Notes under the pieces: model-generated
Seen by the model: the letters and a program-made list of their open reading frames with translations, nothing else
Told to the model about the DNA's origin: nothing
Database searches by the model: none
Assembly (NCBI GenBank): GCA_030650395.1
Contig: JAUSDY010000076.1
Span: forward strand, 64,090-128,089
From: Acidobacteriota bacterium
GTDB taxonomy: Bacteria; Acidobacteriota; Vicinamibacteria; Vicinamibacterales; UBA2999
Length of the DNA stretch: 64,000 bases
Reading direction: 5' to 3'
Position numbers and translations under genes: made by a program
Shown here: piece by piece, positions 1 to 14,359 of the stretch
Layout: each line of letters starts with the position of its first letter
Position numbering within the stretch: position 1 is the stretch's first letter

Positions 1-996
1 TGTTGGACATCGTCGTGAAATCGCTCAGACGCGTGCCGACGGCAATCACGACGTCGGCCTCGCGCGCGAGCCGGTTGGCCGCCAGCGTTCCCGTGACGCC
101 TATCGCGCCCGCCGCCAGCGGGTGATCCCAGGGAATCGAGCTCTTCCCCGCCTGGGTCTCGCCGACCGCGATGCCTGTCGCTTCGGCGAAGCGGCGCAAG
201 GCATCGGCGGCCTCGCTGTAGAGCACGCCGCCGCCGGCGATGATGAGCGGGCTGCGGCTGGATCGAATCGCCTCAGCCGCGCGCGCGATCGCCTCGGCAT
301 CGCCACGCGGCCGCGCGATCGTCCACACGCGCTCGTCAAAGAACGCCTCCGGATAGTCGAACGCTTCAGTCTGGGTGTCTTGCGGTAATGCCAGCGTCAC
401 GGCGCCGGTCTCGGCAGGCGAGGTCAGTACGCGCATGGCTTCCGGCAGCGACGTCAGCAGCTGCTCGGGACGATTGATTCGGTCCCAGTACCGCGACACC
501 GGACGAAAGCAATCGTTCACCGAGATGTCCTGGCTCTGGCTCGATTCGAGCTGCTGCAACACCGGCGCGGGCACGCGGTTGGCGAAGATGTCGCCGGGCA
601 ACAGCAGCACCGGCAGCCGATTGATCGTCGCTCCGGCGGCAGCCGTGATCATGTTGGTGGCGCCGGGGCCGATCGACGTCGTGCAGGCGAGCGTCCGCAA
701 CCGGTTCGACATTTTCGCAAACGCGGCCGCCGTGTGGACCATCGCCTGTTCGTTGCGGCATTGGTAATAGCGCACCCGGTCGCTCATCTGATCGAGCGCC
801 TGGCCGACGCCGGCGACGTTGCCGTGGCCGAATATCCCGAACACGCCGGCGAAGAACCGCTGCCGGCGGCCATCGCGCTCGGTGGCCTGTGCGCTCAAGA
901 ACCGCACCAGCGCCTGCGCCATCGTCAGGCGCCTCCGTGGGGACAAACCTTTCTTGTCCGCCGAAGCGCCCCGCGCGAAGGCGGAAGGTTTGTCCA

Positions 997-1000
<4 letters not shown>
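1..1000 (-). CDS. iolD: IolD (3D-(3,5/4)-trihydroxycyclohexane-1,2-dione acylhydrolase), N-terminal part; gene runs off the left edge
   Basis: Not in the ORF track because there is no stop inside the window. My reverse translation from 1000 gives MMDKPSAFARGASADKKGLSPRRRLTMAQALVRFLSAQ...FAGVFGIFGHGNVAGVGQAL...ACTTSIGPGATNMITAAAGATINRLPVLLLPGD. This is a TPP-enzyme N-terminal domain with the RLTxAQAL/FGHGN pattern of IolD. The start forms an ATGA overlap with the tal stop (997-1000). The start is uncertain (alternative ATG at 922) because codons 1-26 are built from a REP-like hairpin. Confidence 0.8.
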
Positions 1001-2100
<1,100 letters not shown>

Positions 2101-2107
2101 ACACGGG

Positions 2108-2238
2108 GGTTCTACACAACGGTTCCAGACGAGGGTTCCAGACGAGGGTTCCAGACGAAGGTTCTGGCACGATGGTTCTCGGAACCTTCGTTTGGAACCC
2201 TCGGGAGGAACCCCTGTGGGGAACCCTCGTGAGGAACC
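2108..2238. repeat. intergenic palindromic array of GGTTCC / GGAACC words
   Basis: GGTTCCAGACGAG occurs 3 times in tandem (2121-2159). It is followed by the inverted arm GGAACCTTCGTTTGGAACCCTCGGGAGGAACCCCTGTGGGGAACCCTCGTGAGGAACC. CCAGACGAAGGTTC pairs with GAACCTTCGTTTGG with 1 mismatch. Confidence 0.6.
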
Positions 2239-2252
2239 GGCGTCAGATCTAC

Positions 2253-3152
2253 CTATAGGCCCAACGAGCGCAAGAACGCACGATTACGCAACGCACTCTC
2301 TTTCGGCGTGCCGTCGCCAGGGAACACATCCTGTTCCACGACGACCCACCCGTCGTATTGATGACGGGTCAGCACCGAGAACACGGCCGCAAAGTCCACC
2401 GCACCCGTTCCCAGCTCGCAGAACAACTGCGAGCGGACCGCGGCGAGGTAACCGAGTCCCTGCGCGCGCGCGTCGCGCGCCACGACGGGATCGCAATCCT
2501 TGAAGTGGACGTGCCACACGCGCTCGGCATGCTGTTCGAACACACCCACTGGATCGCCACCGCCGTACATGATGTGCCCGGTGTCGAGCACCAGGCCGAC
2601 GAGCGATCGATCGGTGCGGCCCATCAGCTGATCGATCTCGTGCGGCGTCTCCACGTAGCCGCCACAGTGAGGATGAAATACCGTCCGCAAGCCGGTCTCA
2701 TCACGGACCGCGCGTGCCACCCGGTCCGCACCCGCCGCGAGCGTGGCCCACGCCGGCTCCTGCAGGCCGTGCTCGGCGGTGATGCGGCCGGCATGCCGCT
2801 CGCGCTCGGGCACGCGCGCGTTGTCATCCGACAGCACGATGAACGCGCCGCTCGCTCCGGCATCGTGCATCAGCCGCGCAGTCCGCACCGCGGTCGTCAC
2901 GCCCTCGTCTTGCGCGGCCGCGTTGGCGAGCGCCACCGGCACGAAGGCGCCCACCAGCTGCAGCTCTCGCGCCGCCAGTTCCGCGCCGAGCCGGGTGGGG
3001 TCGGTCGGCATGAAGCCCCAGTCGCCCAGCTCCGTTCCGGCGTATCCGGTTTGTGTGATCTCGTCGAGCACCGTTCCGTACGGCGCGGCGATGGACTGAC
3101 TGTCGAATTCCAGAATTCCCCAGGAGCACGGAGCGTTAGCGACGCGAATCAC
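2253..3152 (-). CDS. iolE: inosose dehydratase IolE-like (xylose-isomerase-like TIM barrel)
   Basis: 299 aa. The motifs LVLDTGHIMYGGGD, RVWHVHFKD, GTGAVDF and YDGWVVVEQD match the IolE pattern recalled from B. subtilis. It lies in iol context. Confidence 0.7.
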   Translation of the reverse strand: MIRVANAPCSWGILEFDSQSIAAPYGTVLDEITQTGYAGTELGDWGFMPTDPTRLGAELAARELQLVGAFVPVALANAAAQDEGVTTAVRTARLMHDAGASGAFIVLSDDNARVPERERHAGRITAEHGLQEPAWATLAAGADRVARAVRDETGLRTVFHPHCGGYVETPHEIDQLMGRTDRSLVGLVLDTGHIMYGGGDPVGVFEQHAERVWHVHFKDCDPVVARDARAQGLGYLAAVRSQLFCELGTGAVDFAAVFSVLTRHQYDGWVVVEQDVFPGDGTPKESALRNRAFLRSLGL

Positions 3153-3158
3153 AGGCGA

Positions 3159-4103
3159 ATGATACTATCCGCTCGCTTGGCGCCTCGAGTGTTGTTCCGA
3201 TCGTCGCCGCCTTCGCCGGGCCGTACGGGTACGACAGTGGAGATCACCCGCGCACGTGCCGGCTGGCGCTACGTGCACTTCGCGGTGCGGCAGATCGTTC
3301 CCGGCAAAACGTGGGTGCACGACACGGGCGCTGAAGAGTGCTGCCTGGTGCTGCTCGCGGGACTGTGCCGGGTTTCGTACAGGCACCCCATCAAGGGGCG
3401 CCCTACTAACACGGGGAGCGACGCGCCGGAGATCACCACCACGCTCGGTCCGCGCCGCAGCGTCTTTGCCGATTACCCGCACGCGCTCTATCTGCCGCCG
3501 CGGACATCATTTCGCGTGCAAGCCGACGTCGCCACCGAGCTCGCCGATGGGCGGGCGCCGTCGCGACAGCGTCTTCCACCCCAGCGCGGCTGCCGCGCCG
3601 GGGGCCCGGCTGAACCACGACACATCCGTCCGGAAGACTGCGGATTCGAAATTCGCGGCGGCGGCAACGCGACGCGGCAGATCGTCGATATCATGCCGCC
3701 GGCGTTCGCCGCCGATCGCCTGCTGGTCTGCGAGGTTTTCACGCCGGGCGGCAACTGGTCGAGCTATCCTCCGCACAAGCACGATCAGGATCGTCCGCCG
3801 GCCGAAGTGAAGCTCGAGGAAATCTATTACTACCGCTTCGAGCATCCTGATGCGTACGGGTTCCAGCGGCTTTATGATGGCCGCACCGATCGCACCGTCA
3901 CGGTCGGTCATGGCGATGTTGTAACGGTGAGATCCGGTTATCACCCGTTTGTCACGGCGTACGGATATAACGCTTACTACCTGAACGTCCTGGCCGGCAC
4001 GCGCCGCTCGATGGCGGCCAGCGACGATCCTCGTTATGCCGCGTTTCGGGCCTGGCCGCCGCCCGATCCGCGGGTGCCAATGCTGGCGCGGCCACTGAAG
4101 TAA
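3159..4103 (+). CDS. iolB: 5-deoxy-glucuronate isomerase IolB
   Basis: This is the C-terminal 314 codons of the 581-aa track ORF. Motifs are PPHKHDQD...EEIYYYRF...FQRLYD...TVGHGDVVTVRSGYHPFV...GYNAYYLNVLAG. The upstream 267 codons are antisense to iolE. The ATG at 3159 is in frame; GTG at 3237 is an alternative start. Confidence 0.85.
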   Translation: MILSARLAPRVLFRSSPPSPGRTGTTVEITRARAGWRYVHFAVRQIVPGKTWVHDTGAEECCLVLLAGLCRVSYRHPIKGRPTNTGSDAPEITTTLGPRRSVFADYPHALYLPPRTSFRVQADVATELADGRAPSRQRLPPQRGCRAGGPAEPRHIRPEDCGFEIRGGGNATRQIVDIMPPAFAADRLLVCEVFTPGGNWSSYPPHKHDQDRPPAEVKLEEIYYYRFEHPDAYGFQRLYDGRTDRTVTVGHGDVVTVRSGYHPFVTAYGYNAYYLNVLAGTRRSMAASDDPRYAAFRAWPPPDPRVPMLARPLK

Positions 4104-4144: not shown

Positions 4145-7100
4145 ATGTCACGATTCATTCAGCGTGCGGGCACGATGGTTGCGCTGCTGCTGGTCTCTGC
4201 CGCCACCACTTTCGCGCAGGTCGACCGCGCCACCCTCACCGGCGTCGTCCGCGATTCGTCGGACGCCGTGCTGGCGAAGGCGAAGGTCACCGTCACGAGC
4301 CTCGCGACCGGCGCCGCGGCGACGGTGAACACGACCGACACCGGCACCTTCCTCGTGATCAACCTGGCGCCCGGCGAGTACCTGGTGCAAGCCGAGGCCA
4401 CCGGCTTTCAGCGCTTCGAGCAGACCGTCAGGCTCGAGACCGGCGCGCGCTCGCGCCTCGACCTGTCGCTGGCGGTCGGGTCGATTGGCGAGACGGTGAA
4501 GGTCGAGGGCATTACTCCTCTGCTCAGCAGCGAATCGGCCGTGCTCGGCACCGTCGTCGATCGCAACGAAGTCGACAAGCTGCCGCTCGCCATCCGCAAC
4601 TGGGACGACCTGCTCGCGATGGTGCCCGGCGTGCAGAGCGACCGCTACACCGAACAGTCGGGCGGCACCTCAGCCGGCCGCACCGGCGGCGTCAGCGTGC
4701 ACGGCAATCGCAGCCTGCAGAACAACTTCCTGCTTGACGGCGTCGCCAACAACAGCTTCTCGACCAACGTGCAGGAGCTGACGACGCAGATTTCGCGTCC
4801 TTCGGTGGATGCGATCGATGAGTTCAAGGTGGTCACGAGCCCTTACGCGGCCGAGTACGGATGGTCGCCGGGCGCAGCCATCATCGTGAACACGAAGTCC
4901 GGCGCCAATACCTTCCGCGGCACCGCCTACGACTTCTATCGCGACGACAGCTTCGACTCGACCAACTACTTTGCCAAGGCCGCCAACCAGCCCAAGCCGA
5001 CCAACAAGCAGAACCAGTTCGGCGGCAACCTCGGCGGCCCGGTGATGAAGAATCGCGCCTTCTTCTTTGCGGACTACGAGGGCACCCGCATCAAGCAGGG
5101 CGTGCTGCGAACCGGCAATGTGATGACGGCCGCCCAGCGCAGCGGCGTCTTCACCGGCGCCATCCGCGATCCGCTGACGCAGCAACCCTTCCCGAACAAC
5201 ACCATTCCGACCAACCGGATCGATCCGGTCGCGGCTGCAGTCATGGCGCTCGTCCCGCTGCCCAACACCACCGGTCCGAACAACTTCATCAGGCAGCCGA
5301 ACGTCGAAGACGAGTCGGATCGCTTCCTTGGCCGCGTCGACCTCCCGCTCGGCGGCGGCGGTCACTTCTTCGCCCGCTACATCGGCAGCGATCGCCTCCG
5401 CTTCGTGCCCGGCTGGTTCGGCGGCATCCTCGACGGCACCTCAACCTCTGCATGGGGCCGCAACTTCCTGAAGTCGCACGCGGCGGTCGCGGGCTGGACC
5501 AAGGTACTCGGCTCGAACCTGATGAACGAGGCGCGCTTCTCCTACGCCCGCGGCACCAACGACGGCCAGCAGGATCCGTTCGGCGAGAGCGGCATGGCGC
5601 AGATCGGCTTCCGCGGCGTGCCCGACGATCCCCGCGTTGCCGGCGGCATTGTGGGGATCGACATCGACGGCCACATCCGCCTCGGCTCGCCCAACTTCAT
5701 GCCGAAGTTCCAGCACACCAGCCAGTACCAGTGGCTCAACACGCTGACCTGGCTCAAGGGCAGGCATCAGTGGAAGTTCGGCACCGACATCATGATGCCG
5801 ATGACCAACGAGTACTACGACGTCGCGCCAACGCGCGGCAACCTGCGCTTCCAGAACACGTTCACCGGCCACGCCTTCGCCGACTTCCTGTTGGGCTATG
5901 CCAACCGCGCCGAGCTGACCAACGTCTTCGTGGTCACGCAGCAGCTGTGGTCGACCTCGTTCTACCTGCAGGACGACTGGAAAGCGAGCGACAAGCTGAC
6001 CCTGAACCTCGGCCTGCGTTACGACTACATGCCGCCGGCCACTGAAAAGGACAACCGGCTGGCCAACTTCGATCCCACCGCCAACGGCGGCGCCGGCGGG
6101 CTGATCTTCGCCAAGGATGGATCGATCGCCGATCGCGCGCTGGTGAACGCCGACAAGAACAACTTCGCGCCCCGGCTCGGCGCGATCTACCGCTTCAACG
6201 ACAAGACGCTCGTGCGCGGCGGCTACGGCGTGTTTTACAACCAGTTCGATCGCATCGGCTCGGAGGATCAGCTGGCGCTGAACCCGCCCGGGCTGCGCAA
6301 CATCCAGGTCAACTCGGCATCAGGCGCCACCACGCCGATCCTCCTTCTGCGCGAAGGGTTCCCGGCCAACTATCTCGATCCGTCGAACCTGGTCATTCGC
6401 AACCTGAAGCTGCGCGCCGCCGTCCAGGACGCGCCGCGCACGCAAGTGCAGCAGTTCGGCGCCGGCATCGAGCGGCAGATTGGCGCCAACTTCGTGGCGT
6501 CGGCCGACGCGGTCGGGTCGTTCACCAAGCACCTCGCGGTGTTGCGCAACCTGAACCAGCCGCTGCGCGGCACGCTCGACGCCAACGGCGCGGTGCCGTT
6601 CCCGAACTTCGGCAACATCCAGACCCGCGAGATGAACGGCGAAGCCAACTACAAGGGCGTCGACCTGTCGCTCGAAAAGCGGATGAGCAGCGGCTACAGC
6701 TATCGCGCGTCGTACACGATCGGCGAAGCGCGCGACCAGGCGCCCGAACACCTCAACGCCTCGTCGGGCCGCGCGCAGAACACCCGCGATCTCGATTCGT
6801 GGGAAGGGCCGAGCGACATGGACGTCCGCCATCGCCTCGCCGCCAACTTCATCGTCGAGTTGCCGTTTGGTCCGGGCAAGCCGCTGTTGTCGGACGGCGT
6901 GGGTGGGCAGATCTTCGGCGGCTGGCTGGTCAGCGGCATCTACAGCGCGCGCTCGGGCCGCGCGTTCACCGTCACCCAGACCGGCAACAATGTCGGCGCG
7001 GATCAGACCGGCTTGCCCAACCTCACGGGCGACCCGAAGGGTGCCGAGACCGTGGCGCAATGGTTCAACCCGGCGGCGTTCACGGCGGTGCCGTCCGGTG

Positions 7101-7538: not shown

Positions 7539-9026
7539 ATGACCCCCGTCCTCGAAATGCACGGCATCCGGAAGGCCTTTCCCGGCGTCGTGGCGCTCGA
7601 CGGCGTGGATCTCACGCTGCACCGCGGCGAAGTGCACATGCTGCTCGGCGAGAACGGCGCGGGCAAGTCCACCCTGATGAAGATCCTGAGCGGCGCGTAC
7701 CGCAAGGACCAGGGTCGCATCGTCGTCGACGGCAAGGACGTCGAGATTCAAAGCCCGCGCGATGCGCTCGCGCTCGGCATTCGCGTCATTTATCAGGAGC
7801 TCAATCTCATCCCCCACTTGTCGGTGGCGGAGAACATTTTTCTCGGTGCGGCGCCTACTCACAGGTTTGGCGTCATCGACTGGCGGCGGCTATCAGCGGC
7901 GACATCGCAACTGCTGACCGATCTCGGCATGAACCTCTCGCCCGACACGCCGCTGGGTCAATTGAGCCTGGCGCAACGGCAGATGGTCGAGATCGCGAAG
8001 GCGCTGAAGGGTCAAGCGTCGATCCTCGTGATGGACGAGCCGACCTCTGCGCTGACCTCGCGCGAAGTCGATCAGCTCTTCGCATTGATCGCGCGGTTGA
8101 CGGAACGCGGCGTCGCCATTGTTTACATCACGCACCGGCTCGACGAGGTCTATCGAATCGGGCAGCGGGTCTCGGTGCTCCGCGACGGACGACGGGTCAC
8201 GACCCAGCCGCTGTCGGATGTGACGGTCGCCGAGCTCGTGCGATTGATGGCCAACCGCGAGGTCGGCGATCACTTTCCGAAGCAGCGCACGACGCCGGGC
8301 AAGGAGCTGCTGCGGGTCGAGGGGCTCGGTCGCCGCGGCGCGCTGAGCGACATCAGCTTCTGCCTCCGCGCCGGCGAAGTCGTCGGCATCGCGGGCCTGC
8401 TCGGCGCCGGCCGCAGCGAGCTGGCGCGCGTGATCGCGGGCGCCGATCGATCGGACAGCGGAACTATCCAGTGCGATGGGCAGGCCACGAACTTCCGCAC
8501 GCCCGCCGACGCCATTCGGAGGGGCATCGGTCTGCTGCCGGAAGATCGCAAGGCCGAGGGCCTCGTCGCCGGCCTGACCGTCGCGCGAAACACGGCGCTG
8601 CCCCACGGCCGGCGGCTGGCGCGCTCCGGTTTTCTGCCCCGCGGATGCGAGGAGCGCCTGGCCGAGCCGATCGTGAAGGACTTGCGCGTGAAGGCGACGC
8701 CGACGCAGGAAGTGAGGCTGTTGAGTGGCGGCAATCAGCAGAAGGTCGTGCTCGGCAAATGGCTGGCCGGCGATGCGCACATCTTCATCTTCGACGAGCC
8801 GACGCGCGGCGTCGACGTTGGCGCGAAGATCGAGATCTACAACCTGATGAATCGCCTGACGGCATCGGGCGCCGGCATCATCATGATCTCGTCGGAGCTG
8901 CCAGAGCTGCTCGGCATGAGCGATCGCATTCTCGTGATGTGCCGCGGCCGCATCCGCGCGGAATTCAGCGCCGCCGACGCCACGCAGGAGCGTGTTCTCA
9001 GCGCCGCCCTGGGGTTGGCGTCATGA
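7539..9026 (+). CDS. sugar (probably inositol/ribose-type) ABC transporter ATP-binding protein with duplicated ABC domains
   Basis: Walker A motifs are GENGAGKST and GLLGAGRSE. The signature motif is LSGGNQQKV, and Walker B-like motifs are ILVMDEPT / IFIFDEPT. ATG 7539 is preferred over the 7512 track start, which lies inside the hairpin repeat. Confidence 0.9.
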   Translation: MTPVLEMHGIRKAFPGVVALDGVDLTLHRGEVHMLLGENGAGKSTLMKILSGAYRKDQGRIVVDGKDVEIQSPRDALALGIRVIYQELNLIPHLSVAENIFLGAAPTHRFGVIDWRRLSAATSQLLTDLGMNLSPDTPLGQLSLAQRQMVEIAKALKGQASILVMDEPTSALTSREVDQLFALIARLTERGVAIVYITHRLDEVYRIGQRVSVLRDGRRVTTQPLSDVTVAELVRLMANREVGDHFPKQRTTPGKELLRVEGLGRRGALSDISFCLRAGEVVGIAGLLGAGRSELARVIAGADRSDSGTIQCDGQATNFRTPADAIRRGIGLLPEDRKAEGLVAGLTVARNTALPHGRRLARSGFLPRGCEERLAEPIVKDLRVKATPTQEVRLLSGGNQQKVVLGKWLAGDAHIFIFDEPTRGVDVGAKIEIYNLMNRLTASGAGIIMISSELPELLGMSDRILVMCRGRIRAEFSAADATQERVLSAALGLAS

Positions 9027-9946
9027 GAGCCCGCCGCTTTGGCACCGTCATCGGCTTGGGCGTCCTGTGCGCCGTCCTGTGGGCGCTGACGCCGCACTTC
9101 CTCACGGTCTCGAATCTGCTCAACGTCGCCCAGCAGACCAGCATCAACGCCATCGTCGCCGTCGGCATGACCTTCGTGATTGTTTCCGGCGGCATCGATT
9201 TATCAGTTGGATCGATCGTGGCCCTCTCGGGTGTCGTGCTCGGGGCATTGTTGCAGGGCGGGCAGCCACTTGCCGTCGCGCTGGCCGCGGCGCTGGCCGT
9301 CGGACTCGGGTGCGGGCTCCTCAACGGCGCGCTGGTGAGCGTGGGCGGGCTGCCGCCGTTCATCGCGACGCTGGGCATGATGAGCGTGGCGCGCGGCGCC
9401 GCACTCGTGTTTACCGAAGGACGGCCGGTGTCGGGCTTCGATGAAGGATTCCGGTCGCTTGCGACCGGGGCGATCGGCTTCGTCCCCGCTCCCGTCGTCG
9501 TGATGATCGGGGTGTATATGGCGGCGCACGTCGTCCTGACGCGCACCACCTTCGGGCGCTACGTTTATGCGATCGGCGGCAATGAAGAGGCCACCCGGCT
9601 CTCCGGCGTCGCCGTGCGCTTCCACAAGACGGCGATCTACGGCGTCTCCGGCGTGATGAGCGCGATCGCCGCCATCGTGCTGACGGCACGGCTCAATTCG
9701 GCGCAGCCGATCGCCGGCACCATGTACGAGCTTGATGCGATTGCCGCCACCGTGATTGGCGGCACCAGCCTGATGGGCGGCGAGGGCACGCTCGCCGGCA
9801 CGCTCGTCGGCGCGCTGATCATGGGCGTGCTGCGTAACGGCCTCAACCTGCTTGGTGTATCGTCTTTCCTCCAGCAGATCGTGATTGGCGGCGTGATCGT
9901 GGGCGCCGTGCTGGTGGACACGGTCCTCAAACGTCACCGGGTGTGA
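9023..9946 (+). CDS. sugar ABC transporter permease (RbsC/AraH type)
   Basis: The start forms an ATGA overlap with the ATPase stop. The sequence is MRARRFGTVIGLGVLCAVLWALTP...VSGGIDLSVGS..., with multiple TM segments. The 491-aa track ORF is an upstream out-of-gene extension. Confidence 0.9.
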   Translation: MRARRFGTVIGLGVLCAVLWALTPHFLTVSNLLNVAQQTSINAIVAVGMTFVIVSGGIDLSVGSIVALSGVVLGALLQGGQPLAVALAAALAVGLGCGLLNGALVSVGGLPPFIATLGMMSVARGAALVFTEGRPVSGFDEGFRSLATGAIGFVPAPVVVMIGVYMAAHVVLTRTTFGRYVYAIGGNEEATRLSGVAVRFHKTAIYGVSGVMSAIAAIVLTARLNSAQPIAGTMYELDAIAATVIGGTSLMGGEGTLAGTLVGALIMGVLRNGLNLLGVSSFLQQIVIGGVIVGAVLVDTVLKRHRV

Positions 9947-10430
9947 AGGCCAGCCGCAGACCTGTCCGCCGAAACGCGTCGCGCGAAGGTGGATGACACG
10001 AATTGGAGATCATTCCGTTCGCGGCTTGAGGCCGCGGGCAGACAAGGGCTCGTCGGCCGTGCATCCTCGGTCGTGGGGCGTCCGCAGCCCAGTCGATCGG
10101 CCGTGAGAGGAGTCCGGCGACGTATTAGCCCGCGACGCTCGCGCGTATCCACGTTGGGCGCTCTCGACCGCCTTTCGGCGGTAACGCTCATGCGCTTAAC
10201 AGTTGCCTGGCATGCGGCGGCTGCACTCGGCTTCGCGGATACACGCGAGACGCACGAGTATTCGCCCAGCTCGCGGGCCAACGCGGCACCGCCGGCGCGC
10301 GTTATTGGCGTGCTATCATCCCGGCCTCGTTGCACATGCGAGTGATGAGAACGGTGGGCACCTGTCCGTAGTAGGCCGCGAGTGGTGTGTTCCGGTCTAC
10401 TCCATAGACTGTTAGGCAACAACAACCTTC

Positions 10431-11140
10431 ATGAACAAATCAGAGATTCTGGACTCCATTCGGCGCATCGCCGCCGCCAGTAACGGCAAAGCGCCGGGCT
10501 CTCAGCGCGTTGCCACGGAGACCGGTATGCGCAAGTCAGACTGGTACCCGAAGTTGTGGGTTCGATGGAGCGATGCCGTTCGCGAGGCAGGCCTGCGGCC
10601 CAATTCACTGACTGTCGCGCCGTCCGATGAGGACCTGATCAAGAAGCACATCATTCTGATTCGACAGCTCGGGAGATTCCCAATCGAGAGCGACCTCAGA
10701 CTGGAATCGAACTTTCGGGGCATCTCCAGTCTCGGGCGCAAACGCGAACGGGCCACCAAAGTTCTGGAGTACTGTCGCGAACACAGTGGCTTTGATGATG
10801 TTGTTTCCTTCTGCGATGGAGTCATCACAGCCAAGCCATCGCCGCGCGAACAGTCAGCGGCCCCTTCGGTTCGTGGTCTTGGGTACGTCTATCTGATCAA
10901 GCATGGCAATCGTGCAGAGTACAAGATCGTCGAACACTCAATCCTATCCGCCGTGAGGGAGAGATTCGTCTCGAACTACCAGAGCGACTCCAGCCCGTTC
11001 ACTTTGTAAAGACCGACGATCCCTCCGGCGTCGAAGCTTACTGGCATCAGAGATTCGCGGATAGGCGAAAACAAGGAGAGTGGTTCGCGTTGACACTCGA
11101 CGACGTGCGAGCCTTCAAGCGGTGGAAACGAATATTCTAG
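10431..11140 (+). pseudogene. HEARO-repeat / T5orf172 (GIY-YIG-like, MUG113) protein, disrupted by a 1-nt frameshift near 10929
   Basis: Frame 1 (10431-10928) ends ...[16 protein letters not shown]. The +1 frame from 10931 continues [69 protein letters not shown] (stop 11138-11140), which is the canonical T5orf172 C-terminus. Restoring one G (atcgGtcga) gives YKIGRT. Confidence 0.7.
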
Positions 11141-11149
11141 GACACCGTT

Positions 11150-11219
11150 GCCTAACATGGCATGCAGCCGACGGCGCTGACGAAATCGAGTGCGCCGCGG
11201 CTGATGCCTGACGTTATGC
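11150..11219 (+). mobile_element. attC-like recombination site
   Basis: Termini are GCCTAAC (RYYYAAC) and GTTATGC (near GTTRRRY). The internal arms GGCATGCAGCCGACGGCGC / GCGCCGCGGCTGATGCC pair, leaving two unpaired bases on the 5' arm. The site begins 10 nt after the cassette ORF stop. The arms resemble aadA-type attC (..AGCCGACGCCGC..GCGGCGCGGCT..) as I recall it. Confidence 0.6.
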
Positions 11220-11287
11220 GGGCTCGAGAATCCCCGACTATTCTCTTGTTCACGAAGCGATACCATGCGTGGTAACATCTAAACGGC

Positions 11288-11482
11288 GTGGGCAAGTATC
11301 GGCGCGGCGGCTTCATTTTCATCACCTGGAAGGGTGATCATCCGCCGCGTCACGTCCATGTCTACCGGGACGGCAAGCTTGTCGTGAAGTGGGACTTGGA
11401 CAACAAGAAACCGATGAAGGGGTCCGCGACCCGCCAGGTGTTGGCGCTGATCGCCGGTCTCGAGGCGGAGGGGCTTCTGTGA
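11288..11482 (+). CDS. DUF4160-family small protein
   Basis: 64 aa with a GTG start. GFIFITWKGDHPPRHVHVYRDGKLVVKWDL matches the DUF4160 (E/D)H-PPH-HV pattern. An extended -10 (TGgTAACAT) lies about 20 nt upstream. Confidence 0.7.
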   Translation: MGKYRRGGFIFITWKGDHPPRHVHVYRDGKLVVKWDLDNKKPMKGSATRQVLALIAGLEAEGLL

Positions 11483-11946
11483 AGATTCGGTCCGTCACGT
11501 ACAACAGCCGCCGGAAGATGTTCGAGATCCGAACGTCGACGAAGAATCTCGCGTTCCCATTTTTCAAGGCGGAGCCACCACCGAATTCGACGGATCCCGT
11601 CACGAACGCCTTCGTGGATGGAGAGGCGGGCCGCGAGGCGTTTACGTACATCTTGGCCTCCGGACGTACGGGGACGGTGCACCTTGAGGAGGTCCTTGAG
11701 TACAACCAGGATCCGCGCTACCTGAGAGACCTGCTTCTGTACAAGCTCACGATTGAGGCTCAGCGGCGAATCGCAAGGAGCGCGCTGTCGAAGCGCGAGA
11801 TTGTGCGGCGGCTGGGAACGTCGGCCGCGCAGCTGTATCGCCTGCTCGATCAGACCAACTACCGCAAATCTGTCGATCAGCTCTTGGCGCTGCTGCAGGT
11901 GCTGGACTGCGAGATCGATCTCGTCGTCCGGACAAAGACCGCTTGA
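11479..11946 (+). CDS. DUF2442-like N-terminal domain fused to a C-terminal HTH
   Basis: The start forms a GTGA overlap with the DUF4160 gene. The sequence is VKIRSVTYNSRRKMFEIRT... and the C-terminus is SKREIVRRLGTSAAQLYRLLDQTNYRKSVDQLLALLQVLDCEIDLVV (helix-turn-helix-like). The track start at 11389 overlaps the upstream gene. Confidence 0.6.
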   Translation: MKIRSVTYNSRRKMFEIRTSTKNLAFPFFKAEPPPNSTDPVTNAFVDGEAGREAFTYILASGRTGTVHLEEVLEYNQDPRYLRDLLLYKLTIEAQRRIARSALSKREIVRRLGTSAAQLYRLLDQTNYRKSVDQLLALLQVLDCEIDLVVRTKTA

Positions 11947-11970
11947 ATTCGCGGGGGCCTCGGTGACGAC

Positions 11971-12033
11971 ATGCCCAAGGGAACGCTCGCATCGGTCAAA
12001 CGACAGGCCGGGCTGAAGGCACAGAAGTCATGA
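11971..12033 (+). pseudogene. hicA: hicA toxin remnant (C-terminal 20 codons only)
   Basis: MPKGTLASVKRQAGLKAQKS* matches the conserved HicA C-terminus (..LPKGTLxxIxKQAGL). There is an in-frame stop 2 codons upstream. The remnant keeps the ATGA overlap with the hicB start. Confidence 0.5.
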
Positions 12034-12293
12034 GAACGATCCAGTATCTCGTCCGCATCAACCGTGATCCAGGCAGCGATTGGGGCGCTTCTGTCCCGGA
12101 CCTGCCGGGCTGTGTCGCGACCGGCAAGACGATCGACAGTGCCTTGCGTCGGATCGCGCGAGCCATCGAGCTTCACGTCCGTGGCATGCGCGAAGATGGC
12201 CTGCCGGTTCCTCGACCAAGCCATCGCACAGTGACGCCACGTCGTCGGCCGCGCGAGATCGACTTCTACGCCACGGTGGAAGTGGCCGCCTGA
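12030..12293 (+). CDS. hicB: HicB-family antitoxin (UPF0150-like)
   Basis: 87 aa. YLVRINRDPGSDWGASVPDLPGCVATGKTIDSALRRIARAIELHVRGMREDGLPVPRP is the typical HicB N-terminal domain pattern. Confidence 0.75.
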   Translation: MRTIQYLVRINRDPGSDWGASVPDLPGCVATGKTIDSALRRIARAIELHVRGMREDGLPVPRPSHRTVTPRRRPREIDFYATVEVAA

Positions 12294-12338
12294 CAGGCGA
12301 TGGAGCCGACGGCGTTCCAGACCGCGCCAACTCCATGG
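12288..12338 (+). mobile_element. degenerate attC half-site (5' arm conserved, no 3' core)
   Basis: GCCTGACAGGCGATGGAGCCGACGGCG matches the 5' arm of the 11150 site at 22 of 27 positions (counted by hand). It overlaps the hicB TGA. There is a partial 3' arm (..CTCCAT) but no GTTRRRY before 12411. Confidence 0.4.
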
Positions 12339-12410
12339 GGCCCACGACGACTCTGGTGTGGCAAAGTATCGAGACGAATTCCAACGATCGTCACGTAGGC
12401 TAATGACATC

Positions 12411-13343
12411 ATGCGCAAGCTGATCCTATTTGTCGTGCTTTCCAGCGCCCTGGCCCCGGTTTCGTGCAACAGAGCCGCCCCTGCGGCCGACGACAAGCCG
12501 AAGGTGGCGCTGGTGCTCAAGACGCTCAACCACCCGTTTTTCGTCGACATGCGGCGCGGCGCCCAGGAAGCTGCCGACCGGCTGGGCGTCAACCTGCAGG
12601 TGCAGGCCGCCGAGCGCGAGAGCGACGTCGACAAGCAGATGCAGATTGTCGAGAACATGCTGCAGACCGGCATCAAGGTGCTGGCGATCACGCCGAGCGG
12701 ATCGCGCGAGATCGTTTCGGCACTCGTGAAGGCGAAAAATGCCGGCGTTCCAATCGTGATCGTCGACACACGGCTTGACGCGAAAGCCGCGTCAGACGCG
12801 GGTGTCGTCGCGCAGACGTTCATCGGCTCTGACAACTACGAGGGCGGCAAGCTCGCGGGTGAGTACACGGTGACGGCCACCGGGGGCAAGGCGAAGGTTG
12901 GTATTCTGGAAGGCATTCCCGGTCATGAAACCGGCGATTCGCGTTTGCGTGGTTACCGCGACGCGGTCGCCAAGGCGCCGGGCATCACGATCGTCGCGTC
13001 GCAGCCGGCCAACTGGGAGCGCGACCAGGGCTTCAACGTGTTTCAGAACATGCTGCAGGCGCACCCCGACATCGACACCGTGTTTGCCGCCAGCGACCTG
13101 ATGGCGCTCGGCGCGATCGAGGCCATTGCCGCCGCCGGCAAGACCGGCAAGATCCGCGTCGTCGGCTTCGACGCGCTGGACGATGCGAAGAAGGCGATCG
13201 AGGCGGGCACGATGGCCGCGTCGGTGGCGCAGTTTCCGTACGAGATGGGCAAGGCCGCGGTCGAGAGCGCGGTGAAGATCCTGGCCGGCGAAAAGCTCCC
13301 GGCCGACATCATGGTCAGACTGGAGATGGTCACCAAACGATGA
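12411..13343 (+). CDS. periplasmic sugar-binding lipoprotein of the ABC transporter (RbsB/IbpA type)
   Basis: 310 aa with lipobox LAPVSC. The pattern KVALVLKTLNHPFF...GVPIVIVDT...VVGFDA is typical of type I periplasmic binding proteins. Confidence 0.9.
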   Translation: MRKLILFVVLSSALAPVSCNRAAPAADDKPKVALVLKTLNHPFFVDMRRGAQEAADRLGVNLQVQAAERESDVDKQMQIVENMLQTGIKVLAITPSGSREIVSALVKAKNAGVPIVIVDTRLDAKAASDAGVVAQTFIGSDNYEGGKLAGEYTVTATGGKAKVGILEGIPGHETGDSRLRGYRDAVAKAPGITIVASQPANWERDQGFNVFQNMLQAHPDIDTVFAASDLMALGAIEAIAAAGKTGKIRVVGFDALDDAKKAIEAGTMAASVAQFPYEMGKAAVESAVKILAGEKLPADIMVRLEMVTKR

Positions 13344-14359
13344 AGCGATTGAATGTCGGCGTGATTGGCCTCGGCCGCCTCGGGCGCGTCTACGTGCGCG
13401 ACCTGGCGGGCCGAATTCCGGAAACGAAAGTCGTGGCGGTTGCCGACCCGATCGGCAACCTGGCGAAGGAAATCGCGGCGGAGTTCGACGTGCCGCGATC
13501 GTACACCGATCCGCTGGCGATGATCGACGACAACAACGTCGACGCCATCGTGATCGTGACGCCCACGCATATTCATCGCGAGCAGGTGATCGCGGCGGCG
13601 AAGAGCAAGAAGCCGACATTCTGCGAGAAGCCGCCGGCGTTGTCGCTTGCGGAAGTCGCGGAGATGAAGGCCGCGATCGAAAAGTCGGGGATGTTCTTCC
13701 AGATGGGCTTCATGCGCCGCTTCGATCCCGGTTATGCCGCGGCAAAGAAAGAGATCGACGCCGGCCGCATCGGGCAGCCGCTGGTGTTCAAGGCGACCTC
13801 GCGCGACCCGTTCCGCCCCAGCCTCGAATACGCCAACCCCGCCAGCAGCGGCGGCATGCTGATCGACATGGGCATTCACGACTTCGACCTCGCGCGATGG
13901 TTCATGGGCGACGTCCAGAAGATCTCGGCCATTGGCGCGACGATCGCCTATCCCGAGCTGGCCACCGTCGGCGACATCGACAACGCGATCGCCAGCTTGA
14001 CCTTCACGAGCGGCAAACTCGGCGTAGTCGATCTGACCCGCAGCGGCATCTACGGCTATGACATCTCAACCGAGATCCTGGGCCTCGAAGGCACGATCCG
14101 GATCGGGTACCTGCGCGAGACGCCGATCATGGTGATGACCAAGGCCCACGGCGTGTCGCACGACACGGTGCCGTACTTCATTGAGCGCTTCCGCGACGCG
14201 TACACCAATCAACTGCAGAACTTTGCGCAAAACGTCCTGCAGGGGCGCCCGGCTCCGATCACGATCGATGACGGGATGGAGGCGCTGCGCGTGGGCGTGG
14301 CCGCCACGCGCGCCCGCGAGAGCGGTGGGTCGGTGAACGTCGCGGACATCAAATCGTGA
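13340..14359 (+). CDS. iolG: Gfo/Idh/MocA oxidoreductase, probably myo-inositol 2-dehydrogenase
   Basis: The start forms an ATGA overlap with the SBP gene. Motifs VGVIGLGRLG, FCEKP and GFMRRFDPGY match the IolG pattern. It lies in iol context. Confidence 0.7.
   Translation: MKRLNVGVIGLGRLGRVYVRDLAGRIPETKVVAVADPIGNLAKEIAAEFDVPRSYTDPLAMIDDNNVDAIVIVTPTHIHREQVIAAAKSKKPTFCEKPPALSLAEVAEMKAAIEKSGMFFQMGFMRRFDPGYAAAKKEIDAGRIGQPLVFKATSRDPFRPSLEYANPASSGGMLIDMGIHDFDLARWFMGDVQKISAIGATIAYPELATVGDIDNAIASLTFTSGKLGVVDLTRSGIYGYDISTEILGLEGTIRIGYLRETPIMVMTKAHGVSHDTVPYFIERFRDAYTNQLQNFAQNVLQGRPAPITIDDGMEALRVGVAATRARESGGSVNVADIKS

Follow-up and report, generated by a model that had tools for sequence, protein, structure and literature searches.

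Integron gene cassettes occur in large numbers outside integrons. A survey of 21,105 genomes counted 3400 single attC sites lacking integron-integrases (SALINs) and 2961 attC clusters without an integron-integrase (CALINs), many of the latter being small and free of flanking transposable elements (bioRxiv 10.1101/2022.09.11.507474); by default, IntegronFinder 2 requires at least two attC sites for a CALIN (PMC9024848). Cassettes are also inserted at genome sites other than att sites (5'-GWT-3'), where resident promoters can drive their expression (Loot et al., bioRxiv 10.1101/2022.09.11.507474). For the Acidobacteria, Ghaly et al. (2021; PMC8352920) derived a covariance model from 120 chromosomal attC sites, with the consensus GCCUAAC-AacuC-GUUgAAGCgGACgG ... 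GCcGC-cGCUUAAc-UCGagC-GUUAGGC. Here we analyse a 64,000-nt stretch (the window) of an Acidobacteriota genome of the order Vicinamibacterales (assembly GCA_030650395.1, contig JAUSDY010000076.1), in which an earlier note, made from the sequence alone, had proposed an integrase-less attC cassette array within an inositol ATP-binding cassette (ABC) transporter operon. We find that the DNA between the permease and sugar-binding protein (SBP) genes of this operon very probably carries a decaying, integrase-less array of three integron cassettes, co-oriented with the operon.

Like the SALINs and small CALINs described previously (PMC4889954, PMC9024848, bioRxiv 10.1101/2022.09.11.507474), this element combines an attC site with promoterless, co-oriented small genes, has no intI within 64 kb and no flanking transposable element, carries toxin-antitoxin-like cargo and presents a bare G|TT left junction, as after insertion at an attG site. 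It differs from them in that only one of three original attC sites is recognisable (one deleted, one decayed), in that one cargo gene is frameshifted and in its location within the intergenic spacer of a catabolic transporter operon. Since SALINs and CALINs are common and acidobacterial attC sites have already been modelled, the element, though genuine, is an unremarkable instance of a familiar kind and not a new one, and the earlier description of it as unusual was overstated (bioRxiv 10.1101/2022.09.11.507474; PMC8352920). Its position in an operon spacer and the strain-specific contents of that spacer are of modest interest and may point to a recurrent landing site.

The recognisable attC site, termed attC1, is the following:
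11150 to 11219, plus strand: attC1, an intact 70-nt attC site, matched over its full length by covariance model R1 (61.7 bits, E = 1.6e-14).

We built R1 from six attC sites of unrelated metagenomic cassette arrays, leaving out the window site and its orthologue (L087, 3304-3371), and applied it to the window and to 80 related loci (~1.3 Mb), which had been collected by an SBP search with one genome per species and are mostly labelled Acidobacteriota or Vicinamibacterales. In the 64-kb window attC1 was the sole significant match, and in the related loci, which served as a specificity control, nothing fell below E = 0.01. R1 also recovered held-out attC sites in metagenomic arrays and, as a positive control, the aadA1 attC of plasmid R100 (aligned as GUCUAACAAUUCGUUCAAGCCGACGCCGC...GCGGCGCGGCUUAAC...GUUAGAU), which at 47.8 bits was the only match in its locus. 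When 15 distinct attC sites were aligned to the model, 93.6% of cells were paired (slid controls, 27-39%) and compensatory changes were seen in 14 of 22 pairs. This covariation supports the structure of the family, with counts that are biased towards the model structure, the alignment having been fitted to it.

The published Acidobacteria profile singled out the same site. We transcribed the filter hidden Markov model (HMM) of that model from Supplementary Data 1 of PMC8352920, checking that all probabilities sum to one, and scored each arm glocally (from end to end) at all positions anchored on AAC or GTT on both strands of the window and the 80 loci (~1.36 Mb, or 2.72 Mb in all). The two arms of attC1 scored 19.0 + 16.8 = 35.8 bits, with the runner-up at 15.2 bits, and each ranked first among ~29,000 anchored sites; attC1 was the only match to both arms in the 2.7 Mb scanned. 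All near-invariant positions of the profile are present in attC1, namely AAC in R'', T15, A18, G22, A23, the unpaired C before L', U89, A91, the final C of the spacer and GUUA. The earlier note had named two outcomes that would speak against an attC, a failed covariance-model search and a repetitive extragenic palindrome (REP) dispersed at many positions. R1 returned a clear match, and no further copy of the 70-bp element was found in the window or the 80 related loci. We conclude that the 70-nt element at 11150-11219 is a true attC of the integron type, as opposed to a dispersed repeat.

The architecture of attC1 agrees with this assignment. The site runs from R'' (GCCTAAC, an exact fit to RYYYAAC) through L'' (CAT(G)CAGCC), a bulged A, the stem CGGCGC/GCGCCG, L' (GGCTGATG) and the spacer CCTGAC to R' (GTTATGC), which departs from GTTRRRY at the fifth base alone; in an array this base belongs to the next cassette, and here it matches the R'' (GCATAAC) of that cassette in L099. 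The bottom strand folds with -24.9 kcal/mol (z = -4.0; 0 of 200 shuffles fold as well) and places two single-base bulges, 6 bp apart, on the R''/L'' arm, which is the 3' arm of the bottom strand. This layout, including the unpaired spacer between R and L boxes, is that of the consensus-structure line of the published Acidobacteria model, and it reproduces the termini and the imperfect palindrome with two unpaired bases read from the sequence beforehand. We predict that attC1 is recombined as a folded single strand by an integron integrase.

With the Acidobacteria-type sites (PMC8352920), attC1 shares the R'' GCCTAAC, a 4-5 nt spacer, an L'' in which an extrahelical base comes after a conserved T, conservation at the A, G and GA positions, an unpaired C directly ahead of L' and then a spacer of 6 nt, with C as its last base, leading into the GTTA core. 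It differs from that model in its short central loop (14 nt versus ~47 model positions) and in the R' GTTATGC, whose fifth-position T is found in ~6% of model sequences and derives here from the neighbouring cassette. The likeness to class-1 aadA-type sites, which the earlier note had suggested, was substantiated by the R1 alignment: the aadA1 attC (the 59-base element of class 1 integron In2 on R100) has the same architecture, shares the motif AGCCGACG.CGC ... GCG.CGCGGCU and is found, like attC1, by R1 (47.8 versus 61.7 bits), whereas it is 60 nt long, resides in a mobile integron beside intI1 and has C instead of G as first extrahelical base of the top strand. A scan of 9800-12500 against Rfam, which has no attC model, matched no family, and blastn of the 85-nt attC1 region against plasmids gave chance-level partial matches only.

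Comparison with other genomes and metagenomic contigs resolved three cassettes around attC1, and every homology breakpoint between the window and its counterparts (L087, L099 and L092) falls on a G|TT core or on a deletion junction. Outside the window, these cassettes are found in genuine arrays, within a complete integron and, inserted singly, between housekeeping genes. The first cassette comprises:
10411 to 10417, plus strand: lone R'-type core GTTAGGC at the left end of cassette 1, with the crossover G|TT at 10411/10412; homology to L087 begins exactly at 10411.
10412 to 11214, plus strand: cassette 1, the GIY-YIG gene and its attC up to the crossover G, 82% identical in nucleotide sequence to L087 2564-3373, a match that stops at the cassette boundaries.
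10431 to 11140, plus strand: GIY-YIG (T5orf172/MUG113) gene, frameshifted by a 1-nt deletion just after 10928.

Nucleotide homology to L087 is confined to 10411-11221, starting with the G of GTTAGGC and stopping where the attC ends. The core stands 13 nt before the ATG at 10431, agreeing with the earlier placement of a core upstream of the first cassette open reading frame (ORF), and an 11-nt stretch at this core (TGTTAGGCAAC) perfectly complements GTTGCCTAACA (11147-11157), which extends the complementarity between the core and GCCTAAC, the R'' of attC1. There is no attC hairpin upstream of the core, which as a 3' arm scores only 7.9 bits and has no covariance-model match. The MUG113 domain (1.4e-10) is encoded in the -1 frame only, a different frame from that of the N-terminal part, and attC1 begins 9 nt past the TAG (11138-11140) of the frameshifted frame. 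When one G is inserted after 10928, the frame again yields a protein of 236 aa, for which 1622 homologues were found, the nearest of them full-length (236-244 aa) and up to 92% identical; the window copy is therefore frameshifted and predicted to be inactivated. A second assembly (L001) carries the identical frameshifted sequence. The "nuclease-like gene" previously listed as cargo does belong to the GIY-YIG family, but as a frameshifted copy.

An 86%-identical homologue of this gene is found in contigs L087-L089 within a six-attC array spanning 4.3 kb, where an attC almost identical to attC1 lies 10 nt past the stop codon. Further GIY-YIG homologues also have an attC downstream, and a 75%-identical GIY-YIG cassette belongs to the complete integron on L085, whose IntI is 48% identical to IntI1 over 326 residues. 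In this metagenomic integron (L085, 3539-4504 and 5723-12963) the IntI homologue shares its strand with six long attC sites (159-168 nt), lies upstream of them and is transcribed towards the cassettes, in contrast to the divergent arrangement of class 1 integrons; the original gene call covered no more than a 193-aa fragment of it. On another contig of 66% GC (L097, 9197-15536), about a dozen small co-oriented genes with at least three attC sites (9920-9990, 10734-10802 and 11398-11461) lie between housekeeping genes, a run that is probably another integrase-less array and that contains a GIY-YIG cassette homologue.

The second cassette begins within the R' of attC1:
11214 to 11959, plus strand: cassette 2, a DUF4160 and XRE-type pair, beginning with TTATGC, its own attC gone; 89% identity to L099 5737-6481.
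11288 to 11482, plus strand: DUF4160 gene, 64 aa, a putative toxin-like partner (Pfam DUF4160, 2.9e-5); the same pair is present in L099 and L101.
11479 to 11946, plus strand: gene for an XRE-type helix-turn-helix protein, 155 aa (Pfam HTH_26/HTH_37), its start overlapping the DUF4160 stop by 4 nt.

The XRE-type protein has 5674 homologues and, among the 120 matches listed, those at 76-92% identity are nearly all 155 aa long. The match to L099 (window 11213-11959) starts at the G of the attC1 R' (11213) and ends just before the L099 attC (6482-6552; 36.2 bits), whose R'' (GCATAAC) exactly complements GTTATGC. As the L099 cassette begins ...CTTG|TTATGC and has this complementary R'', the "imperfect" R' of attC1 is made up of the six bases that open cassette 2, as expected from integron recombination. 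In that other Acidobacteriota genome (L099, 5737-6552) the DUF4160/XRE cassette stands by itself between ribBA (riboflavin genes) and ffh-rpsP-rimM-trmD, with a bare left junction ...CTTG|TTATGC and a right-hand attC ending in G|TTAACC, and looks like a natural single-cassette insertion of the attG type (a SALIN).

Cassette 3 is represented by a truncated toxin-antitoxin pair and a degenerate site:
11951 to 12033, plus strand: 3' remnant of hicA, identified by alignment with L099 and with the full hicA of L091/L092.
12030 to 12293, plus strand: hicB antitoxin gene, 87 aa, full length for its family (Pfam HicB_lk_antitox, 2.4e-12).
12288 to 12351, plus strand: decayed attC of the hicAB cassette, its 5' arm matching the attC sites at L092 7860-7946 and in L099.

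Window positions 11951-12311 are 80% identical to L092 7523-7884; L092 has an attC, then a complete hicA, hicB and another attC. In the window, cassette 2 passes straight into the last third of hicA at GCGGGGGCC (~11951-11960), and because this 9-nt sequence can be read equally well as the end of cassette 2 or as internal hicA sequence, it points to a microhomology deletion that would have taken out the cassette 2 attC together with the 5' two-thirds of hicA. At the far end, 12288-12314 matches the 5' arm of attC1 at 22 of 27 positions and overlaps the hicB stop (12291-12293), while the 3' arm pairs only in part and no GTT or R' core follows; the second site proposed at 12288 was thus seen in each of its particulars. 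Its R'' has mutated to GCCTGAC, the hicB stop inside R'' being TAA (GCCTAAC) in L091/L092 and TGA in the window and L094, a change (TAA to TGA) that keeps the stop codon while the recombination core is lost. The hicB product has 1679 homologues (E <= 1e-8), most of the 120 matches listed being 87 aa long, and this large family suggests that fossilised hicB cassettes may be widespread in the Acidobacteriota. A lone hicB with the same GCCTGAC change, with no hicA and no detectable attC, lies between HAD hydrolase and glycosyltransferase genes at two other loci (L094, 10001-10290; L095, 1566-1850). Together, the three cassettes bring toxin-antitoxin-like genes, in keeping with the earlier view of the cargo as typical of chromosomal cassettes.

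The flanks of the element are set by the transporter genes:
9020 to 9946, plus strand: sugar ABC-transporter permease gene, 3' part, left flank (Pfam BPD_transp_2, 8e-44; NCBIfam ribose-type permease; stop at 9944-9946).
9947 to 10410, no strand: GC-rich (66-67%) non-coding spacer of 465 nt, defined by composition and junction comparison.
12352 to 12410, plus strand: leader of the SBP gene, host sequence and right boundary of the insert, shared with the closest relatives, being conserved in L002 and in each SBP copy of L090, the sequences further upstream being otherwise different.
12411 to 13343, plus strand: SBP gene, right flank (Pfam Peripla_BP_4, 1.2e-64).

The ORF calls agree with the permease end (9946) and SBP start (12411) given previously. 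In ~65 related Vicinamibacterales genomes among the 80 loci these two genes are separated by only 4-300 nt, and the 2.46 kb between them in the window is therefore an insertion. Relatives lack the 2.4 kb, so the remaining outcome that the earlier note had named as refuting, its conservation as core sequence, was not seen either; that extra DNA interrupts the operon was accordingly also the right reading of the sequence. The whole 2.46 kb had been described as AT-richer, which fits ~10400-12000 (54-61% GC versus 65-69% in the flanks) but not 9947-10410, host-like at 66-67%, so that by base composition the AT-richer part of the insert amounts to only ~2 kb. The inositol label is plausible for the gene cluster, because IolD-, IolE-, IolB- and IolG-like genes share the window (the first three at 1-4100, the last at 13340); the transporter itself can be typed as a ribose-family (CUT2) sugar system and no finer. 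The IolD-like thiamine diphosphate (ThDP) enzyme is encoded on the minus strand and extends past the window start, the IolE-like TIM-barrel gene (2253-3152) is also on the minus strand, the IolB-like C-terminal region is within an ORF ending at 4103 and the IolG-like dehydrogenase (13340-14359) scores just under the NCBIfam cut-off (343 versus 355 bits).

As the earlier note had stated, the window holds no intI: tblastn with IntI1 (sequence verified as 100% identical to annotated intI1) and with the metagenomic IntI of L085 found no tyrosine recombinase in the 64 kb. A weak IntI1 match at 710-802 (E = 2e-4) was rejected, as it sits inside the IolD-like ThDP gene. Neither a transposase nor terminal inverted repeats were seen, and no terminator-like site and no sigma-70-like promoter were predicted on the plus strand of the insert; the cassettes are probably transcribed by read-through from the operon. 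A complete integron would have intI, attI and Pc beside the cassettes, and here there is no intI in the window and nothing recognisable in 9947-10410. Nor does the window offer the two or more clustered detectable attC sites of a CALIN, yielding a single site even with filters off. With one detectable attC next to coding sequence and no integrase in 64 kb, the element is formally classified as a SALIN under the IntegronFinder 2 default, and by homology it reads as a decayed three-cassette CALIN; the "CALIN-like" array of the earlier note is therefore apt for the three homologous cassettes but not for the number of sites a model detects.

Only the first ~25 nt of 9947-10410, which contain the GCCGCAGA motif, resemble the native intergenic region of relatives. 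The rest returned no significant match with blastn (100 loci), tblastn (cassette proteins and integrases), Pfam (its ORF) or Rfam, nor any local alignment to attC1, and as far as we can tell no cassette DNA is present in these first 465 nt. A 13-nt inverted repeat is present in this spacer (9966-9978 and 10169-10181), and the Logan contig L001 breaks at 10200. A 16-nt similarity of 10199-10214 to the start of attC1 did not extend.

The permease-SBP spacer of relatives has different contents. In the closest relative (L002, 95% protein identity) homology to the window resumes only 59 nt before the SBP ATG, and the region upstream of the SBP gene encodes a DUF104-like antitoxin and a MazF-like toxin in place of the window cassettes. 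A degenerate attC-like hairpin occurs in that region (L002:1-1043, at 177-248; 15.4 bits, both R boxes mutated), and a stretch of ~70 nt before the shared leader may match the decayed last attC of the window (GACAGGCGA ... CTGGTGTGG, with similar spacing). A metagenome scan with a 29-nt SBP-leader pattern returned one contig only, L090, which adds a third variant and assigns the leader of 50-60 nt to the SBP gene. GTAGGC at 12395 was rejected as a decayed core, since it lies inside this conserved leader and is host sequence. On L090 (1-1690) two 86%-identical SBP gene starts, each with a ~50-nt leader, stand head to head with a BrnA-like antitoxin fragment between them, an arrangement that is either a real inverted duplication or an assembly chimera. 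In a distant relative (L079, 6409-10001), 3.6 kb with ORFs of 917 and 137 aa separate the permease and SBP genes and contain no attC match; this may be a different kind of insertion or an extra operon gene.

The contents of the spacer are thus strain-specific: GIY-YIG, DUF4160-XRE and hicAB in the window, DUF104-like and MazF in L002 and a BrnA-like fragment in L090. It is conceivable, if on balance unlikely, that in this Vicinamibacterales lineage cassettes land in the spacer recurrently, with the inducible promoter of the operon replacing the cassette promoter Pc and an integrase acting in trans. If so, it would constitute an operon-embedded, integrase-less "mini-integron" supplied in trans from an integrase encoded elsewhere.

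In the history we favour, an integron integrase acting in trans would have placed the cassettes here, most simply by recombination between an attC and a genome site of the attG type. We propose this route because at the left end no hairpin accompanies the bare G|TTAGGC core, which is what that reaction yields; the single-cassette insertion in L099 has the same bare-core left geometry. Without upkeep by an integrase, attC sites and one gene would since have decayed: the 9-nt microhomology deletion would have taken the attC of cassette 2 and most of hicA, and the last attC (12288-12351) would have drifted out of recognisability.

Several observations weigh against a three-cassette array inserted in this way. 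Only one attC passes a model, so that the array as such is carried by cassette homology, and neither the site at 12288 nor the core at 10411 was detected by the covariance model even with filters off. The significant scores come from our own glocal scoring and our own model R1, not from the model of IntegronFinder, and the published filter HMM used alone with local nhmmer gave the 5' arm of attC1 just 5.5 bits (E = 30), a search that is insensitive because the 47-position loop of the model splits the arms. The right-hand junction is too decayed to display the G|TT hybrid expected of insertion at attG, and the basis for read-through transcription is solely the lack of predicted terminators. Finally, the 465 nt at 9947-10410 could be the remnant of an attI/intI platform degraded past detection.

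Loss of intI from a complete integron is the classical proposed origin of CALINs, and the array could be what remains of a complete chromosomal integron at this spot, its intI and attI lost and 9947-10410 left over from the platform. The ~465 nt of non-coding DNA are exactly where a platform would be, and the other cassette-like genes at the same spot in L002 and L090 suggest a once-active array with turnover. We nevertheless consider this origin doubtful: 9947-10410 has no tblastn similarity to IntI1 or the L085 IntI, its GC content is that of the host and, being far too short for intI, it would require a large deletion; moreover, 95% of CALINs are not near recognisable intI pseudogenes (bioRxiv 10.1101/2022.09.11.507474). 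Transfer of the cassettes together with the flanking transporter genes, by homologous recombination from an array-bearing relative, seems less likely still. The SBP leader (12352-12410) and the array position are common to at least three divergent relatives with different contents, which fits allelic exchange, but such a transfer merely moves the original integration to another genome and leaves the G|TT-bounded cassettes unaccounted for. Last, imperfect palindromes are plentiful in GC-rich genomes, and the local nhmmer and plasmid blastn searches were respectively non-significant and at chance level, yet the idea that the 70-nt palindrome is a generic REP or terminator-like hairpin, coincidentally resembling an attC in a toxin-antitoxin islet brought by another mobile element, is highly implausible given its uniqueness in the window and 1.3 Mb of related DNA, its match to all near-invariant profile positions, the presence of the orthologous gene-and-site unit both in arrays and as part of a complete integron, with homology that ends at G|TT cores, the lack of a T-run after the hairpin and the fact that no transposase or terminal inverted repeats were seen.

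This decaying array, its cassettes probably inserted by an integrase acting in trans, offers a cleanly resolved natural case of integron cassettes residing outside any integron, in an acidobacterial order of soil that is uncultured. It displays the aftermath of such an event, in the form of attC decay, an apparent deletion between cassettes, a frameshift and a stop codon kept while the recombination core was lost. It also supports the recently proposed route of cassette dissemination through attG sites and SALINs, the left junctions being as predicted for integrase-mediated insertion at genome sites.

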